DNA from: an uncultured Verrucomicrobiae bacterium
Lineage (GTDB): Bacteria; Verrucomicrobiota; Verrucomicrobiia; Chthoniobacterales; UBA10450
Length of the DNA: 64,000 nucleotides
Assembly: GCA_963801815.1 (NCBI GenBank)
Contig: CAWDGJ010000006.1
Coordinates: 52,283-116,282 of the forward strand
Reading direction: 5' to 3'
Part shown: piece after piece, positions 1,178 through 60,922 of the stretch
Layout: each line of letters starts with the position of its first letter
How positions within the stretch are numbered: the first letter of the stretch is position 1
Translations under genes and position numbers: made by a program
The notes under the pieces: generated by a model
What the model saw: only the letters and a program-made list of their open reading frames with translations
What the model was told of the DNA's origin: nothing
Databases searched by the model: none

Positions 1178-1356
1178 CGGCAGGGCTCATCGCCGGCAAG
1201 CGTCTACTTATTAAAGTCGGTGCTTGGGAACAATCATGCCGCTCCGCGGCAAACTACAAGAGGGTCATATAGATGCACTAGCGGGAGCGTAGATACCGCT
1301 ACAACTGCTTCCGCTTTTGCTTTCCCACGCTACCGTGTTCGGTGATTCCGATTGTT

Positions 1357-3546
1357 ATGGCGGCGGAAATTCAACCAGCAAATCCAGCGCACACGAACCG
1401 GCTCGCGCACGAAAAGTCGCCTTATCTTCTTCAGCACGCCCATAACCCGGTCGATTGGTATCCGTGGGGCGATGAAGCGTTTGAAAAGGCACGCCGCGAA
1501 AACAAACCAATCTTCCTCTCGATCGGATACTCGACTTGTCATTGGTGTCATGTGATGGCGCACGAGTCCTTCGAGGACGAAGAAATCGCGGCGATCATGA
1601 ATCGCGAATTTGTGAACATTAAAGTGGATCGCGAAGAACGGCCGGATGTTGATCGCGTTTATATGACGTTCCTACAGGCGACCACCGGAGGCGGGGGTTG
1701 GCCGATGAGCGTTTGGCTCACACCTGATCTAAAACCGTTCGTGGGCGGAACATATTTTCCGTCGGAAGACCGTTACGGTCAGCCCGCTTTTCGGAAAGTT
1801 TTGGAACGAATCGCAACCGCGTGGAAACAAGACCACGAGAAAATCATCGAGAACGGGACGAAGATTGTTGATGCGCTGCGCGAGTCGCAGTCGTCCGCGG
1901 CAGATACGTCTGTCAAGCTCGACAGCAGCATACTCGAAAAAGCGTACCAGCAACTCGATCGGAGTTACGATCCGCGCGAAGGCGGATTCAGTCCGGCGCC
2001 AAAATTTCCACGACCCGTGGCGCTGAATTTTTTGACTCATTTCTACGCGCGCGATCCAAACAGTGAATCGGGCAAGCACGCGTTGGAGATGGATTTGTTT
2101 ACTTTGCGCAAAATGGCGGCCGGCGGAATTCACGATCATGTCGGTGGCGGATTTCATCGTTACTCGGTTGATCGTTACTGGCACGTGCCGCATTTCGAGA
2201 AAATGCTTTACGATCAGGCGCAGCTTGCAATTGCCTACGTCGACGCGTTTCAAATCACCCAAGATCGACAATACGCAGACGTGGCGCGCGACATTTTGGA
2301 TTACGTCGCGCGGGACATGACTTCAAAAGACGGCGGGTTCTTTTCCGCAGAGGATGCCGATAGTGCAGAGGTAGGGTCATCGCGCGGCGATGACCACGGT
2401 CGGCGCAGTGCGGCGACGCTACCAAAGAAAGAAGGCGCGTTCTATGTTTGGACGGAGAAGGAGATCGACGACGCGCTTGGCGCCGATTCGGCAGTTTTCA
2501 AATATCGTTACGGCGTCCAGCCGCACGGCAACGCGCCAGAAGGCAGTGATCCGCAGGATGAATTTCGGGGCAAAAATATTTTGATTCAGCGGCACACAAT
2601 CGCTGAAACGGCCAACCATTCCAAAAAGAGTGAGGACGACGTTCGACAATTGCTTGCCCGAAGCTGCGCGAAATTATTCGCAATCCGCAACCAGCGGCCA
2701 CGTCCGCATTTGGATGACAAAATCATTTCGGCGTGGAACGGCTTGATGATTTCCGCCTACTCACGTGCCGCACAGGTTTTGGATGAGCCGCGTTATCTCG
2801 AGGCTGCGAACCGCTCGGCAGAATTTCTGCGCGCGAACCTTTACGGTGACAAACTTCTTTTCCGTAATTTTCGCGAAGGCCGCGGAACGGTTGAAGGTTT
2901 CGCCGATGATTACGCGTTCGTCATTCAAGGACTGCTGGATCTCTACGAAGCGTCATTCGATGTCGAATGGTTGAAGTTCGCTATCGCGTTGCAAGCAACT
3001 CAGGACCGTCTGTTCTTCGACGAAAATCGCGGCGGCTATTTCAGCACCAGTGGCAAAGACAAGAGCGTTGTATTGCGAATGAAAGACGACAATGACAGCG
3101 CTGAGCCGGCCGCGAGTTCGGTCGCGGCGTTGAACTTGCTGCGATTGGCGCAATTTCGCGGCGACAAGAATTTCCAAGACCGTGCGCGGAAGACGCTCGA
3201 AGCCTTTACGCCGGCGGTGAATCATTTTGCCAGCGCCATGCCGCAATTGTTGGTGGCATTTGAGTTTAGTTCGAGCAAACCGCTCCAGATCGTGATCGCC
3301 GGCAAGATTAACGACGAACAAACAAGAGCGCTCCTCAACGAAGTGCATCGCCATTTCTCGCCAAACCAAGCCCTAATTCTCGCCGATGGCGGCGAAGGTC
3401 AGAAGTTCCTCGGCGAAAAGAACGAAGCGATCCGCGCCATGTCACCGGTTGATGGCAAACCCGCCGCTTATGTCTGTGAGAATTTCACCTGCAAAACGCC
3501 AGTGACTGATATCAAGGCTTTGAACGCGCTGCTATCGCGTGAATAA
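1357..3546 (+). CDS. thioredoxin-domain protein, DUF255/YyaL (SPATA20-like) family
   Basis: About 730-aa ORF. N-terminal [13 protein letters not shown]...[11 protein letters not shown] thioredoxin-like motif, followed by a long alpha-helical (six-hairpin-like) region. ATG at 1357; an in-frame GTG at 1342 is also possible. Confidence 0.85.
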
Positions 3547-11870: not shown

Positions 11871-12050
11871 TAGTTTGTAGCTGCGGCGCTCTATGACTGT
11901 CGCATTATTGTCAGGTTCTGCTTTGCTCGATCTCCAGATCGAAAATTTCACCGATGAACGGGCCAATCCCTCCATTTCTGTAAAAAAATCGGAAGGGTTG
12001 CGAACGTTTCATCGAGTCTACGAAGTCGGTCGGGCATGGAATCCATCATG

Positions 12051-12075
12051 CGGCGGTCATAGACCGCCGCTACAG
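12051..12075 (-). repeat. REP-like unit (CTGTAG + cggcggtc-tat-gaccgccg hairpin) overlapping the GT4 stop codon
   Basis: 8-bp stem with a TAT loop, as at 19-44. It encodes the last 6 codons (LCSGGL) and the TGA of the GT4 gene. Confidence 0.6.
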
Positions 12076-15256: not shown

Positions 15257-15980
15257 TCACCAGCCGAGCGTATTTATTAGACGGTCAACGTCGGAAAAAT
15301 CATCAATCAAAATGTCGGGATGATGTTCTGAGAGTTTTTCACGACTCCAACTGCCCGTCGCCACGGCGATCGTGCGCGCGCCGAGCGCTTTCCCGCAGGC
15401 GATATCGCGGGGCGTGTCGCCGATGACGTCAATCTCATCCGCGGAAAATTCGCGGCCATGCTTCTCCTTTGCTCGTGCGCGGGCGAAGGGCCCGAGCTGG
15501 TTGCGGTCGTGATGATCGTCAGCGAACGCACCGAACTCGAAGAAATGCCAGACTCCGTAATGACCAAGCTTTAACCGTGCACCGCGGGAGACGTTGCCGG
15601 TCAACAACGCCAGCACGACGTGTTTTCGCGTTTTCAATTTCTCGAGCAGCTCAAGAACGCCTGGAAGTAAATTGCCTTTGCGCCGCGGCAGTTCGAGGGA
15701 AAGAAAGTGCACGTAGCTGTCGAGGAACGCCGCGATGTTCTCCGCGGTTGTCGGAATTTGGTGCTTCTTCAAAATGCTGGTGACGATGCCTGAATCGGTC
15801 ATGCCAGCGATCTCGATGTCGTCGGAGATCGTCATCGATTTTGAAACGCTCCTTCAAGGCGCGCTTGAGCGCCTCGACTCCGGCGCCGCCGGAATGAATC
15901 AGCGTGCCGTCGATGTCGAAAAGAAGTAGACGCTTCGTAATTGCGGATTGCCGATTGCGGATTGCGGATTTATTGACCAC
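15257..15980 (-). pseudogene. HAD-superfamily hydrolase (phosphoglycolate-phosphatase-like), frame-disrupted near 15838
   Basis: The N-terminal LLLFDIDGTL (motif I) is in one frame. The rest (TGNVSRGARLK..., VIGDTPRDI) is in the -1 frame. A single extra base joins the two. Confidence 0.8.
15940..15970. repeat. tandem heptamer (ATTGCGG/ATTGCCG) x4.5
   Basis: attgcgg attgccg attgcgg attgcgg att. Overlaps the 5' codons of the HAD ORF. Confidence 0.8.
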
Positions 15981-16006: not shown

Positions 16007-16031
16007 TTGTAGGGCAACCGCTCCGGTTGCC
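16007..16031 (+). repeat. REP-like unit (TTGTAG + ggcaaccg-ctc-cggttgcc)
   Basis: 8-bp stem and 3-nt loop directly after TTGTAG. Lies in the divergent HAD/lepA intergenic region. Confidence 0.6.
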
Positions 16032-17989: not shown

Positions 17990-18126
17990 GCTTTGAAATG
18001 TCGAAATCCGAATGACGAATGACAAAGGAAATCTCGAATGACTAAATCGGTAAGAAAAGTGCAACAAAGTTTTTCATTTTCGCTATTCGTGCTTGTTTCG
18101 ACATTCGAAATTCGACATTCGTGCTT
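17990..18126. repeat. intergenic palindromic word-repeat element (TTCGAAT/CGAATG words), family shared with 27090-27232
   Basis: The 3' core attcgtgcttgtttcgacattcgaaattcgacattcg (18085-18122) matches 27179-27218 at about 34/38. The 5' half carries the complementary words. Confidence 0.7.
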
Positions 18127-27090: not shown

Positions 27091-27232
27091 AAATTCGAAA
27101 AACTCGAATTTCGAAGTCCGAAACAATTTCAAAAATCGAAGATTCGAATTGAAGTTGTTCGCCTTTTTGATTTTCCAGATTCGTGCTTGTTTCGAGTTTC
27201 GATATTCGACATTCGAATTTGAGAATCAATCG
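27090..27232. repeat. intergenic palindromic word-repeat element, same family as 17990-18126
   Basis: gaaattcgaaaaactcgaatttcgaag... faces attcgtgcttgtttcgagtttcgatattcgacattcgaat. Sits between two convergent genes. Confidence 0.7.
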
Positions 27233-54621: not shown

Positions 54622-54687
54622 TTGTAGGGGCGTTTGTGTCAAACGCCCAATTAAATAAACAGGCGCTTGGCACAAGCGCCTCTACAA
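54622..54687. repeat. REPIN-like doublet: two inverted GTAG + 9-bp-stem hairpin units
   Basis: ttGTAG-gggcgtttg-tgt-caaacgccc ...12 nt... aggcgcttg-gca-caagcgcct-CTACaa. Confidence 0.8.
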
Positions 54688-55692: not shown

Positions 55693-55728
55693 CTGTAGGG
55701 CGAAGCTGTCAGCTTCCCGATCGGGAAG
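55693..55728 (+). repeat. GTAG + overlapping palindromes in the purF-purM spacer
   Basis: ctGTAGggc-gaagct-gtc-agcttc and cttcccgatcgggaag. Confidence 0.5.
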
Positions 55729-57380: not shown

Positions 57381-58193
57381 TTACGCTTTCATCGCCTGCC
57401 ACACAATTGCCCGCATGGTGCTTTCTAGCGGCTCCGCGCCGAAGCGCCCAGAAAGCTTTTTTGCCACTGCATCGATCAGCCGGTTGGGATCGACCCCGCG
57501 CTCGGCGGCTTCGGTGCCCACGGGATTTCCGCGCACGAGTCCGTTCGCGAATTCTTTGGCCGAATTCACCCGACAGGATTTCGTTTCCTCGAACGACTCG
57601 ACCTTGTCGAAGCCGGCATTTTGCAAAAGTTCGCGGATCACTTTGGAATCGTGAAGGCTGAACGGGATTTCGTAAAACCTTGGCGGATCGTGATCGAAGA
57701 ACGACGCGATTGTGGTGTGGGTAATTTGTGCAAACGGATTCGCGTCGAACGAGTCCCAAACATTGAATAAAAACGTGCCGCCGGATTTTAAAACGCGATG
57801 GGCTTCGCGCATCGCGGCCGCTTTATCTGGAACGAACATGTAACCGAACTGGCAGACGACCGCGCCGAATGAATCATCCGGAAACGGCAGGGCCGATGCG
57901 TCGGCTTGCTGCCAGCGAACATTTTCGCCGGTCCGGAATTTCCGCCGGGCAAATTCGAACATGTCGGGATTCAAATCGGTCGCGACAATCTCCACTTCCG
58001 CGGGCAACGCGTCGCGAAATCGGCGCGTTACAATTCCAGTGCCGCAGGCAATTTCGAGAACGCGGTAGGGTTTCCTGGTATTCAGCCGTGAAGCCAGATC
58101 CTCGGCGTAGGGTTCGAAGATAACCGGTCCGAGGTAGCGATCGTAATTTTCCGGGATGTCTCCCGCGAACACGACATTGCGATCCCGCTCCAT
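57381..58193 (-). CDS. class I SAM-dependent methyltransferase
   Basis: VLEIACGTGIVT motif I. 270 aa. Its start abuts the purL stop. Confidence 0.8.
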   Translation of the reverse strand: MERDRNVVFAGDIPENYDRYLGPVIFEPYAEDLASRLNTRKPYRVLEIACGTGIVTRRFRDALPAEVEIVATDLNPDMFEFARRKFRTGENVRWQQADASALPFPDDSFGAVVCQFGYMFVPDKAAAMREAHRVLKSGGTFLFNVWDSFDANPFAQITHTTIASFFDHDPPRFYEIPFSLHDSKVIRELLQNAGFDKVESFEETKSCRVNSAKEFANGLVRGNPVGTEAAERGVDPNRLIDAVAKKLSGRFGAEPLESTMRAIVWQAMKA

Positions 58194-60554
58194 TTACAAA
58201 CTCGGAATACCTTCCGCGCAGGAGTCGCTTTCGACGAGGCGGCGGATCGAGTTCCACCAATCGTCGTAAAGATCGGCAATCGGCCATGCAAATTTTTGTT
58301 CCCCGACTTCGATGCGCAGTTGGTCGCCGCCGACTTCACCGAGTCGCTGAAACGGAACGCCCGCGTTTTCCAACATCGAGATCGCCTTTTCGAAATTGTC
58401 CGGTGCCACCGAAATCACGATTCGTGACTGCGATTCGTTGAAGAATGTTGTAGCCACGTCGCTATGCGACGTTTGTTCAGGACGGCCCACAGGGCCGTGG
58501 CTACACTCGATGTCAGCCCCGAGCGGGCCGGCGGGATTGAAACACGATTCCGCGATCGCCACCGCGAGTCCTCCTTCGCTGCAATCGTGTGCGCTCTTTG
58601 TGAAACCAGCGCGAATCAGGTCGCGCACCGCGGTTTGGACCTTAATTTCGTGATCAAGATCGACGCGCGGCGACGGGCCGAGTTTCTTGCCGTGGCAAAC
58701 TTTTAGAAACCGCGAGCCCCCGAGTTCGTCGCCGATTTTGCCGACAAGAATGATTTCGTCGCCGGCATTTTTGAACCATTGCGTCGTGATGTGCGCTTCT
58801 TTCTGGATCAGTCCAACCATGCCGATGGTCGGGGTAGGGTCGACCACGCCGGCGGGGCTCTCATTATATAGAGAGACGTTTCCCCCGGTCACCGGTGTCT
58901 CGAACGCCCGACAGGCCTCGGCCGCGCCTTCGACCGCTTCGCGCAGCTGCCAGAAGTTTTCCGGCTTGTAGGGATTGCCGAAGTTCAGGTTGTCGGTCAC
59001 AGCGAGTGGTATTGCGCCGGAACAGATGAGATTTCGCGCCGCTTCCGCGACTGCGATCTTCGCGCCTTCGCGCGGATCCAGCGCGCAGTAGAGCGAATTG
59101 CAATCGCTCGTCGCCGCCAAAATCTTGTTGGCGTATTTCACGTGAAACACAGCGGCGTCGGAGCCCGGCTTCACCACAGTGCCGGTGCGAACGGTGTGAT
59201 CGTACTGCCGATAAACCCAGTTCTTCGACGCGATGTTCGGATCACGGAGAAGTTGTCGCATCGCTTCCTGATTGTCGATCTTCGGCAACGTTACCGGATC
59301 GACAATGTCTCGACGTGAAGGTGGTTCGACTTCGCGCGAATAGAGTGGCGCTTCGTCCGCCAGCGGTTTCGCCGGAATTTCCGCGGCCACGCTCCCATTG
59401 TTGCGCACGCGCATCATGCCGTCATCGGTCACGCGACCGATCTCCGCCCATGGCACGTCCCATTTGTCGAAAATTTCGCGAACGATTTTTTCTTTTCCGC
59501 GCTTGGCGATGATCAACATCCGCTCCTGCGATTCGCTGAGCAGAATCTCGTACGGCGTCATGCCCGGTTCGCGTTTCGGAACTTTCGCGAGATCGATTTC
59601 GATTCCGCTGCCGCCACGGCTCGCCGTTTCACAGGTTGAGCAGGTCAGACCGGCCGCGCCCATGTCTTGAATTCCGGCAACTGCGTCGCTGGCCAGGAGT
59701 TCGAGGCACGCTTCGAGCAAAAGCTTTTCCTTGAACGGATCGCCTACTTGGACCGCGGGCCGATCTTCCTTCGATTCCTCGGTCAGCTCTCGCGACGCGA
59801 ATGCCGCGCCGGCGAGACCGTCGCGACCGGTTTCCGCGCCGACGTAGAAAACGGGATTGCCCACTCCGCGGGCAGCGCCGCGTGCGAGTTGATCGTGTCG
59901 CAGCACCCCGAGACAGAAAACATTCACCAGAGGATTGCCCTCAAAACTTTCATCGAAATAGATTTCGCCACCGATCGTCGGAATGCCGATGCAGTTTCCG
60001 TAATGGGCGATGCCCGAAACGACGCCCGCGAAAAGGCGCCTGTTGGCGGCGATTTGTTTTTGTCGATCTTCTGTGGCGGCAGGCGTCTCGCCTGCGCAGC
60101 CGGGACGGCTGCCTCCACAGTCTTCTGCTATCAGTCCAAACCGTAGCGAGTTGAGACAAAACTCGGGGCGCGCGCCCATTGTGAAAATGTCGCGAATGAT
60201 TCCGCCGACTCCGGTCGCCGCCCCTTGGAAGGGTTCGATCGCGCTCGGGTGATTGTGGCTTTCCATCTTGAACGCGATCGCCCAGCCATCACCAATATCG
60301 ACCACGCCGGCGTTTTCCTCGCCGGCTTTCACCAGAATGTTCGGCCCGGTAGTTGGAAATTTTTTCAGCTCCAGCCGTGAATTTTTGTAGGAGCAATGCT
60401 CACTCCACATCACCGAGAAAATTCCCAACTCAGTGAAATTCGGCTCCCGGCCCAGGATTTTCTTGATCCGCTCGAATTCTTCCGGCGTCAGGCCGTGTTT
60501 CGCCACCAGCTCCGGGGTTATTTTAGGATCGGTGGTCGGTGTGGCCTTGGTCAT
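58194..60554 (-). CDS. purL: phosphoribosylformylglycinamidine synthase subunit PurL
   Basis: 786 aa. SEHCSYK, ESHNHPS and GGNVSLYNE motifs. Intact frame. Confidence 0.9.
60071..60120. repeat. palindromic two-hairpin element inside the purL CDS, flanked by TCTTCTG
   Basis: ctgtggcg-gcaggcg-tct-cgcctgc-gcagccg-gga-cggctgc-ctccacag. TCTTCTG occurs at 60067-60073 and 60121-60127. Confidence 0.7.
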
Positions 60555-60600
60555 CGACCCCGCACGTTAACTGAACGGGCGTGCCGCACAACTGGTTCAC

Positions 60601-60673
60601 TCTTCCTTTTCCGCTTCGTCTTCGTCTGCTTTCGAGAACGAGACGAAGATTAAGACGACAGAGGTAGAGGAAG
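60601..60673. repeat. imperfect hairpin of CGTCTTCG / CGAAGACG words in the divergent spacer
   Basis: cttcctttt ccgcttcgtcttcgtctg ...gagacgaagattaagacg...aggaag. Confidence 0.5.
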
Positions 60674-60733
60674 ATTTAATCGAATACCGTGCCGCGGATC
60701 GAAGTCTAATTATATAAAGAGAAGGGAGTGAAT

Positions 60734-60922
60734 ATGAAACGCTATCTTGCAATTTTAGTCACGAGTGCCGTCGTGACATTGTTCTGCGTTCCGAATGTCG
60801 CCGCGTTTCCAGGCGAGCGAATGCCTTACCGCGCGGCGCATTTCGCCGGCAGAGTCGTTCAGAAAGTCGACAACCACGTGATTCATCCGGTGACGCACGG
60901 AATCGCGCGTCGTCTACGATAA
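60734..60922 (+). CDS. small secreted hypothetical protein
   Basis: GAAGGGAG lies 6 nt upstream of the ATG. Signal peptide MKRYLAILVTSAVVTLFCVPNVAA. Confidence 0.5.
   Translation: MKRYLAILVTSAVVTLFCVPNVAAFPGERMPYRAAHFAGRVVQKVDNHVIHPVTHGIARRLR

Follow-up and report, generated by a model that had tools for sequence, protein, structure and literature searches.

A probable REPIN translated within a loop of PurL in an uncultured Chthoniobacterales bacterium

The window analysed here, a 64,000-nt stretch from a contig of an uncultured Verrucomicrobiae bacterium, contains a 50-nt palindrome inside purL, the gene for subunit II of formylglycinamidine ribonucleotide (FGAM) synthase. With a probability of roughly 80%, this palindrome is a REPIN, i.e. 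a doublet of two inverted repetitive extragenic palindromic (REP) units tagged with GT[AG]G. A sequence-only reading had proposed an insertion of the type of a miniature inverted-repeat transposable element (MITE) or a REPIN; tagged units at at least 120 loci, their position on both sides of genes for a REP-associated tyrosine transposase (RAYT) and three insertion sites in purL speak for the REPIN and against the MITE. The host gene and the parts of the element are located as follows.

58194-60554, minus strand: purL (FGAM synthase subunit II), 786 aa, intact open reading frame (ORF), host of the element
60071-60120, minus strand: probable REPIN, its two REP units inverted and directly adjoining (0-nt spacer), aligning with family copies from other loci
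60071-60095, plus strand: REP unit 1, GCAGGCG type, with CT at 60071-60072, GTGG tag at 60073-60076 and loop TCT
60096-60120, minus strand: REP unit 2, GCAGCCG type, inverted, with the GTGG tag as complement of 60115-60118 and loop GGA
60071-60076, plus strand: outer stem CTGTGG, pairing perfectly with CCACAG at 60115-60120
60079-60085 and 60089-60095, plus strand: hairpin GCAGGCG/CGCCTGC, perfect over 7 bp
60096-60102 and 60106-60112, plus strand: hairpin GCAGCCG/CGGCTGC, perfect over 7 bp, abutting the first hairpin

The plus strand from 60067 to 60127 reads TCTTCTGTGG CG GCAGGCGtctCGCCTGC GCAGCCGggaCGGCTGC CT CCACAG TCTTCTG, and the element itself is CTGTGG-AG-GCAGCCGtccCGGCTGC/GCAGGCGagaCGCCTGC-CG-CCACAG on the coding (minus) strand. 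Each GTGG tag is separated by 2 nt from its hairpin, which has 7 perfectly paired stem positions and a loop of 3 nt, and the two arms of 25 nt (60071-60095 and 60096-60120) are 84% complementary. The palindrome is the strongest inverted repeat in the window. Its DNA fold reaches -22.7 kcal/mol (z = -4.75, 0 of 200 shuffles as good) and the fold of the mRNA strand -34.2 kcal/mol (z = -3.85). The pattern GCAGNCG-N(2-6)-CGNCTGC is found at these two places only in the window, with 0.03 occurrences expected, and no other copy of the family was detected in the 64 kb by a search allowing up to 3 mismatches together with the hairpin pattern. An Rfam scan of 58000-60800 at E ≤ 1 gave no match on this REPIN or on the second one described below, and two sub-threshold chance hits elsewhere. 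The two-hairpin palindrome reported from the sequence alone was verified at this position in purL with all of its sequence features. Positions 60072-60119 form 16 in-frame codons (C146-T161) without a stop. The translated insert thus comprises 48 nt; the outermost C and G of the palindrome are not part of it, and it stands between a GAC and a GAA codon (coding strand with flanks: GCA GAA GAC / TGT GGA GGC AGC CGT CCC GGC TGC GCA GGC GAG ACG CCT GCC GCC ACA / GAA GAT).

Dispersed copies were obtained from one scan of a metagenome collection with a 24-nt pattern of the left unit (TGTRGNGGCRGCCGTNNCGGCYGC), which is the GCAGCCG-type REP unit 2 of the window. The GT[AG]G-tagged left unit was found at at least 120 stretches, the flanks of which were read by eye without a formal homology check, and none of them showed the flanks of the purL loop between LRFG and NRRLF holding the element (termed site 1) or those of a second purL site (site 2). 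The sequence-only reading had called for a search for further copies; these are missing from the window and abundant in the metagenomes, and its proposal of an in-frame insertion of a dispersed palindromic element was borne out. Most of the listed stretches hold a doublet. The statistics given here are based on 56 clean doublets and 123 units, in all cases among the matches listed. The coding-strand formula of the family is CT-GT[AG]G-NG-GCAGCCG-NNN-CGGCTGC followed by the inverted GCAGGCG-NNN-CGCCTGC-CN-C[CT]AC-AG. Short hairpins with GTAG or GTGG at the foot, two of them facing each other as inverted units, are characteristic of REP sequences and REPINs (PMC3479197, PMC3116915, PMC3733652). 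All 56 doublets combine the same two unit types as in the window in the same order, with spacers of 1-33 nt (mode 15 nt). The GCAGGCG-type unit is the second partner in 58 dispersed doublets, and in 49 of these all 7 stem positions pair. Of the 123 units, 101 are tagged with GTAG and 22 with GTGG, and CT stands immediately before the tag in 103 of 122. Position 3 of the GCAGCCG-type stem covaries (A-T 89, G-C 22, G.T 6, A.C 6). In 11 purL copies, 95% of the pair cells are paired and one compensatory pair occurs in three Watson-Crick types. The sub-type of the window (GTGG tag, GTCCC and GAGAC around the loops) is carried by the fetched loci (L numbers) L101 and L127 with spacers of 17 nt and 6 nt, respectively. 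The closest proteins and genome loci belong to metagenome-assembled genomes labelled Chthoniobacterales, Udaeobacter, Spartobacteria or Verrucomicrobiota, mostly from soil, and the REPIN family is abundant in soil Verrucomicrobia of the Chthoniobacterales/Udaeobacter group.

Location within genes is not peculiar to purL. Among the matches listed, 33 of the 123 units lie inside ORFs reaching at least 60 codons on both sides, and for seven in-frame hosts Pfam domains were found on both sides of the insert. These confirmed hosts are an E1/E2 2-oxoacid dehydrogenase fusion (two inserts, in lipoyl-domain linkers), an E2 acyltransferase, FtsK, a family-B DNA polymerase, a gamma-glutamyltranspeptidase, a methylmalonyl-CoA mutase and a BadF/SIS protein. 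In-frame residence in genes is typical of this REPIN family.

The transposase link was found in two of the fetched loci, L141 and L084, which encode the two relevant ORFs with an HUH...Y motif (of the form ..VIMPDHVHLFV..YVRENPVRAGLV..). The ORF of L141 has its ATG at 511 and its TAA stop at 958-960 (stop-to-stop span 422-956). Its product matches NCBIfam NF047646 ('REP-associated tyrosine transposase') with 89.4 bits and Pfam Y1_Tnp with 34.1 bits, both above the respective cut-offs of 80 and 23 bits. The gene is bracketed by two full REPINs of the window's family, the downstream one right after the stop (TAA CTGTAGAGGCAGGTGTGCCGCCTGC..). The arrangement in L084 is the same, with REPINs on both sides of the RAYT gene. 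This is the diagnostic REP-RAYT association, for the family and not for the window's own genome; a regular-expression search of the 64-kb window gave no ORF with an HUH...Y motif.

Four other RAYT candidates (L015, L034, L061 and L077) were rejected as cognate transposases, being without flanking units of the window's family; those of L034 and L061 reach the Y1_Tnp cut-off, and that of L077 has no Pfam match. Y1_Tnp/RAYT-like ORFs were observed within a few kb of purL (L034:907-1489, minus strand; L061:5705-6161, plus strand; L015:1335-1842, minus strand). They are flanked by other REP families, e.g. GTAGGGACATCTCTCCGAGATGTCC in L061; therefore, several RAYT-REP systems coexist in the clade. 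Furthermore, a carbamoyl-phosphate synthase large-subunit ORF of 1356 aa (L108:7453-11521, plus strand) contains an in-frame insertion of approximately 250 aa, and the same was seen in L131 (minus strand, cut by the end of the contig). The insertion holds a RAYT-like Y1 transposase domain (78.9 bits with NF047646, just under 80, and 32.7 bits with Y1_Tnp), with REP-like peptides at its borders. A transposase domain translated within an essential enzyme would be unusual.

The host protein is a full-length PurL composed of the FGAR-AT linker and two AIRS/AIRS_C repeats, without frameshift or stop. A protein 100% identical to it (P0001; P numbers denote PurL proteins) has the Pfam domains PF18072, PF00586 and PF02769, and its relatives are Chthoniobacterales. 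The match to Thermus PurL (PDB 3VIU) has an E value of 3e-203, and all columns invariant across 40 relatives are also present in the window's PurL. For the comparison of loops, the 120 closest PurL cluster representatives (81-100% identity) were used. The site-1 loop comprises 27 residues compared to 3 in 3VIU, and the distance from LRFG to NRRLF is 30 residues compared to 11 in the shortest relatives of the clade, in agreement with the extra-long loop described from the sequence alone. Across the relatives, the alignment block of the loop varies between 2 and 26 residues; judging from this variation, the loop tolerates length changes, and it is presumably surface-exposed. An AlphaFold2 model of the window's PurL based on 40 close relatives had a mean pLDDT (predicted local distance difference test score) of 47, with values below 50 over residues 68-347, and was unusable for loop placement. 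The loop was placed by sequence alignment to PDB 3VIU instead.

Site 1 is a hotspot for inserts and is occupied by different sequences even among close relatives. The short form PITGDSPNVAT is present in 46 of the 120 representatives and longer forms in 74, which make up at least five unrelated repeat-derived types. Most of the long forms in the DNA comparison set of 81 loci are hairpins or palindromes, with a 29-bp perfect stem of -84.5 kcal/mol in L043. Relatives were ordered by the unweighted pair group method with arithmetic mean (UPGMA) on masked columns, the resolution of which is poor because all PurL sequences are 10-14% apart. The nearest relatives P0002 and P0003 (5-6% amino acid divergence in masked columns) hold other loop types, and the loop type of the window is found again in the more distant P0007 and P0013. 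One of the other insert types, (b) (GGTRAVVS..APTARRPP), was found at scattered positions beyond purL in the fetched loci as well; at site 1 it abuts the AAGATCGACAAAAACAAAT flank, as does the window's element.

The unit of the window's family was detected at three sites of purL. At site 1, it is present in the window and about a dozen loci, including L081, L082, L014 and L019. At site 2, just before LFNESQSR, full copies were found in L012, L018, L020, L025 and L050, and many relatives hold only the right half, AGDTPATT (GCAGGCGACACGCCTGCCACCACAG). At site 3, the unit is read in another frame and gives an 18-residue peptide (L004/P0015, P0010, P0072 and P0103). Only 1 of 50 nt distinguishes the site-2 copy of L012 from the site-1 copy of the window, with the genes being 80% identical. 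Three sites in purL, two reading frames and the near-identity of non-orthologous copies indirectly support mobility, as far as sequence comparison can indicate it. Site 3 was also observed with several alternative inserts of 20-30 residues, e.g. TTDYTDQTDVLKKISELSVTSVVQ and SVATGLWPVDDGRPTGPRLQ, the window having the short form. Site 2 of the window is occupied by a REPIN of another family:

58449-58505, minus strand: second GTAG-tagged REPIN, of an unrelated family, at purL site 2 just before FFNESQSR, in frame, 20 residues

This second REPIN reads TGTAGCCAC[GGCCCtgtGGGCC]gtcctgaacaaa[CGTCGCataGCGACG]TGGCTACA on the coding strand, and its DNA fold is -19.5 kcal/mol (z = -4.48). Its peptide type is found at site 2 in many relatives, and Thermus PurL has a 12-residue gap there. 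Further indel blocks of PurL in the clade were located at window residues ~419-430, 609, 689-697 and 729. As a side observation, sites 1 and 2 are not the only indel hotspots, and at least three others were noted (residues ~404-441, 609 and 729). It is a tentative and rather doubtful idea that, in the globally abundant Chthoniobacterales/Udaeobacter lineage of soils, a few loops of PurL, an essential enzyme, are recurrent landing pads for REPINs, in which families may replace one another within a few per cent of protein divergence, a translated module of 54-60 nt may move between loops of the gene, and copies may be kept far more uniform than neutral sites. If this were due to targeted insertion (for example into pre-existing hairpins or a preferred flank) or to selection on hairpin or peptide, REPINs would regularly diversify protein loops and would not be strictly extragenic passengers.

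The palindrome is accompanied on both sides by TCTTCTG, which had been interpreted as a 7-nt target-site duplication.

60067-60073, plus strand: left TCTTCTG, coding CAG/AAGA, the palindrome's last CAG followed by AAGA (codons GAA GAT, Glu-Asp)
60121-60127, plus strand: right TCTTCTG, coding CAGAAGA within GCA GAA GAC (Ala-Glu-Asp), host flank specific to the window's lineage

The perfect 7-nt direct repeat itself was verified; its interpretation did not withstand comparison with other copies. On the coding strand, the upstream flank is GCAGAAGAC in the window compared to GAGGAAAAC in L081, GACGAAAAC in L082 and GGAAAAC in L014. The closest orthologues with the insert have GAAAAC instead of CAGAAGAC upstream of the element, and ..AAAAC precedes it also in L014, L019, L011 and L028. 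Downstream, CAGAAGA is found alike in the window, L081 and L082, and CAG-AAGA follows the purL copies at site 1 of L081, L082, L014, L019 and L064 and at site 2 of L012, L018 and L020. The downstream 7-mer is therefore made up of the last CAG of the palindrome and Glu codons recurring beside purL copies. Since GAAAA(C) stands upstream in L081, L082, L014 and L019, the perfect 7-mer results from Glu-Asp codons on both sides in one lineage; the aligned loci place the upstream 7-mer in the window's lineage only (Ala-Glu-Asp compared to Glu/Asp-Glu-Asn elsewhere). No empty site with a single TCTTCTG was found among the orthologues, none of which has ..EDRQKQ.. minus the element. The short allele PITGDSPNVAT is also without the EDRQKQIA segment and differs across the whole loop, and the nearest relatives hold other repeat families.

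An origin as a MITE mobilised by a DDE transposase, with TCTTCTG as its target-site duplication, is therefore highly improbable, in spite of the perfect repeat around the palindrome and of a length of 54 nt, a multiple of three, for the element plus one repeat. The 48-nt translated insert is the simpler reading of this length. A flanking repeat of 3 nt or more was found in 0 of the 56 listed doublets; among them, direct repeats immediately next to the two ends reach 2 nt at most, and a repeat built like that of the window, with the terminal CAG included, never exceeds 3 nt. The orthologous copies in L081, L082, L014 and L019 are without the 7-mer repeat, and of the two 7-mers one includes the CAG of the palindrome itself and is seen again at other insertion sites. 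Moreover, the architecture is that of REPs and the link is to a Y1/HUH and not to a DDE transposase; a full-length insertion sequence (IS) with these ends was not seen in any locus, the only gene flanked by the units being the Y1/HUH transposase gene.

Two further motifs were considered at the insertion points. The motif AAGATCGA was rejected as a target motif, with 5 occurrences near dispersed copies compared to about 3 expected among the matches listed. At purL site 1 it directly follows the element, and it also marks site 3 of the window, which has no insert and reads CCG/AAGATCGACAA. Four of the 5 occurrences, among the 123 listed copies, are on the other side of the element, where AAGATCGA(C/T) precedes the left REP unit by exactly 15-16 nt (L100, L107, L119 and L193). 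In 11 of 103 dispersed copies (background 0.4%), the GCAGCCG-type unit has the tetranucleotide TCTT before it, and the other unit never has it among these matches. The TCTT side of the window is that of the GCAGGCG-type unit, and its flank is therefore not explained by this preference.

According to the REPIN reading, the REP units would be non-autonomous, and a single-copy RAYT of the HUH/Y1 type would recognise the tagged hairpin on single-stranded DNA, cut at CT and transfer the strand without leaving a target-site duplication, by analogy to TnpA-REP of E. coli and to IS200/IS605. Transposition without target duplication is established for IS200/IS605 and inferred for RAYTs. A compact, spacer-less copy lies in the short PurL loop between LRFG and NRRLF, in the one frame that gives the 16-residue peptide of the window, without a stop, so that PurL stays intact and the copy would persist as a passenger. 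The loop would serve as a recurrent landing site, occupied by different repeat families in closely related genomes. No host function is required or shown for the element. As to its age, third-codon identity between the window and L081 and L082 is 0.60 and 0.61 in the 300-nt flanks, compared to 16 of 17 and 17 of 17 positions inside the element, and only about 1.3% of the 50-nt windows of the gene are as similar. The element is far better conserved than the synonymous sites of the gene, and the copy is therefore much younger than the split of the genomes, homogenised against other copies or under selection; decayed copies in L017, L028, L054 and L064 argue against general selection.

The REPIN family may be the ultimate source and the copy in the window may still have arrived by recombination, either as a loop cassette exchanged between purL alleles of co-occurring strains or by ectopic conversion between sites 2 and 1 of purL. 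This route, which does not exclude the REPIN reading, is possible, with the odds somewhat against it. It would account for the scatter of loop types over the PurL similarity clustering, in which close relatives differ and distant ones agree, and the nearly invariant flanks (LRFGPI and a 20-residue segment) are possible recombination arms. The purL copies at sites 1 and 2 share the spacer-less form and the GAAAAC and GAAGA codons, which dispersed copies do not have, and the 49 of 50 nt shared by the L012 site-2 copy fit as well. However, identity in the 150-nt flanks of the window and L081/L082 is 0.83-0.88 and thus only slightly above the gene average of 0.80-0.82, so no long recombined tract is visible, and the site-3 copies with their other frame and other flanks fit an insertion at the DNA level. 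That the hairpins or the peptide are functional and selected in purL, be it as mRNA structure tuning translation or decay or as a Cys-containing enzyme loop, is unlikely. The conservation above that of neighbouring synonymous sites, the strong fold of the mRNA strand and the pairing maintained by compensatory changes in purL copies agree with such a role, but the loop is empty in 46 of 120 relatives and filled with unrelated sequences in the rest, and older copies have the decayed palindromes mentioned above. The Cys pair is missing from GTAG-type copies (CSGGRVGR...), the unit also occurs in many unrelated genes and in intergenic DNA, and no Rfam family matches it. That the palindrome formed locally and without a mobile element, through a quasi-palindrome mutation templated by a hairpin or because an existing half such as AGDTPATT was duplicated in inverted orientation, has next to no probability. 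Many relatives do carry the right half alone (GCAGGCGACACGCCTGCCACCACAG) at site 2, from which the full element can be derived as right half plus its reverse complement with two changes. An identical left unit is, however, present at at least 120 unrelated loci and beside RAYT genes, and the halves differ consistently (GCAGCCG versus GCAGGCG) in both dispersed and purL copies, which is unexpected from independent local duplications.

Several observations weigh against a REPIN placed in purL by its RAYT. Neither a RAYT nor a second family copy is present in the 64 kb, so it is through other, unplaced metagenome contigs that the family is tied to a transposase. In purL, almost every copy is spacer-less and has (G/A)AC before and AAGA after the element, unlike the dispersed copies. 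This suggests that recombination or copy-paste among the purL copies, and not separate RAYT events, may have given rise to them. The uniformity of the copies in the window, L081 and L082 could reflect selection on the hairpin. The tag in the window is GTGG, and any change of the tag in E. coli abolishes cleavage (PMC3479197), so the copy may be immobile. Finally, the surface exposure of the loop is something we infer, the AlphaFold2 model being unusable.

Additional tagged hairpins were observed in the window. A scan for GT[AG]G-tagged hairpins gave 56 overlapping hits compared to 5.1 in shuffles; about ten tagged hairpins of other families are present. Positions 1-45 hold another copy of the site-2 REPIN family, GGCCTGTGGCC..CACGGCGCATAGCGCCGTGGCTACAA (tag and hairpin GTAGCCACGG..), cut by the window start. 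An intergenic REPIN of a further GTAG family (TTGTAGGGGCGTTTGTGTCAAACGCCC-aattaaataaac-AGGCGCTTGGCACAAGCGCCTCTACAA; RNA fold -44 kcal/mol) lies at 54623-54685 and adjoins a purM-like gene. The GTAG-tagged hairpin at 2370-2397 (GTAGGGTCATCGCGCGGCGATGACC) is located in frame in ORF 1282-3543 (plus strand), between two domains of a 754-aa DUF255 thioredoxin-domain protein, and is probably another translated REP. The tagged hairpins at 12050-12073 and 16008-16030 have no spanning ORF, and the one at 55694-55715 is in a stop-to-stop ORF; the true start of purM probably lies downstream of this hairpin. L019 and L077 also contain the unit found at 16008 (GTAGGGCAACCGCTCCGGTTGCC), and that at 55694 resembles units of L013 and L016. 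Short, AT-richer repeats at 15939-15970, 18097-18121 and 27198-27221 (GCGGATTGCGGATT.., ATTCGAAATTCGA..) match the PurL-loop inserts 'KSEIRNPKSEI / KFEIRNS' of other species; therefore, those loop types are dispersed repeats, too.

For annotation, the Cys/Gly/Pro-rich 16-residue stretch of PurL can be regarded as translated selfish DNA and not as an assembly error, a domain or a regulatory RNA, insofar as the REPIN reading holds. The RAYT of the REPIN family was identified, and the intragenic habit of GTAG-tagged REPs, known from one cultured verrucomicrobium, is extended to the Chthoniobacterales of soils, which are uncultured and very abundant. REPIN turnover, target choice and the amount of random peptide that a housekeeping enzyme tolerates can be studied in purL, a natural data set with hundreds of genomes and, in a single gene, at least three sites and at least five repeat families. 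Alignments of these genomes contain indel-rich loops that derive from repeats, and such loops should be masked when phylogenies are built.

Among known systems, the REPIN/RAYT pairs of Pseudomonas and E. coli (PMC3116915, PMC3479197, PMC3337134) resemble the family in their inverted REP hairpins, the GT[AG]G tag beside CT, the many dispersed copies, the absence of a target-site duplication and the single Y1/HUH transposase gene flanked by units. The REPIN has been proposed as the mobile unit (PMC3116915), and TnpA-REP requires the GTAG tag for binding and for cleavage at CT (PMC3479197). The window's copy differs in being spacer-less (family mode 15 nt, Pseudomonas spacers longer), in its GTGG tag and in its verrucomicrobial host, and it is translated as part of a gene, in contrast to the extragenic location given for REPINs. 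Bacterial MITEs (Correia/NEMIS, RUP, ERIC, Nezha) are likewise short, non-autonomous, palindromic and dispersed in or near genes; they have IS-derived terminal inverted repeats and target-site duplications, in contrast to the tagged hairpins, missing duplication and Y1 transposase of the family described here. The palindromic elements (RPE) of Rickettsia (Ogata et al. 2000, 2002; Claverie and Ogata 2003, as cited in PMC3733652), the classical example of palindromic repeats that are translated, are also in-frame insertions in housekeeping genes and thought to lie in tolerant surface regions. RPE-1 is approximately 100-150 bp long, AT-rich, without a known transposase and from another lineage, the likeness being one of behaviour only.

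The closest counterpart is found in the same phylum. GTAG-tagged REP families have been described across many phyla by Di Nocera et al. 2013 (PMC3733652), and Opitutus terrae (Verrucomicrobia) has several coexisting families, one of which is mostly GTGG-tagged. In this organism, dimers are spaced by 1-2 bp, and intragenic GTAG REPs were found in the highest number, mainly as dimers encoding 20-30 residues and sometimes two per gene (PMC3733652). The change from GTAG to GTGG in one family, the closely spaced dimers and their intragenic location are thus shared with the window's element. The order is a different one (Chthoniobacterales), and the hairpin sequence may differ, the comparison being by description only. 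The supplementary host-gene list of Di Nocera et al. 2013 does not contain purL, the recurrent use of one loop by several families across hundreds of genomes is not described there, and no paper linking Udaeobacter to such repeats was found in the literature searched. In-frame GTAG-REP dimers in Verrucomicrobia have been known since 2013, and the window's element is an ordinary member of this known class. Mildly new are the occurrence of this family, together with its RAYT, in uncultured Chthoniobacterales of soils, the translated form without a spacer, and the repeated colonisation and turnover of PurL loops by several repeat families.

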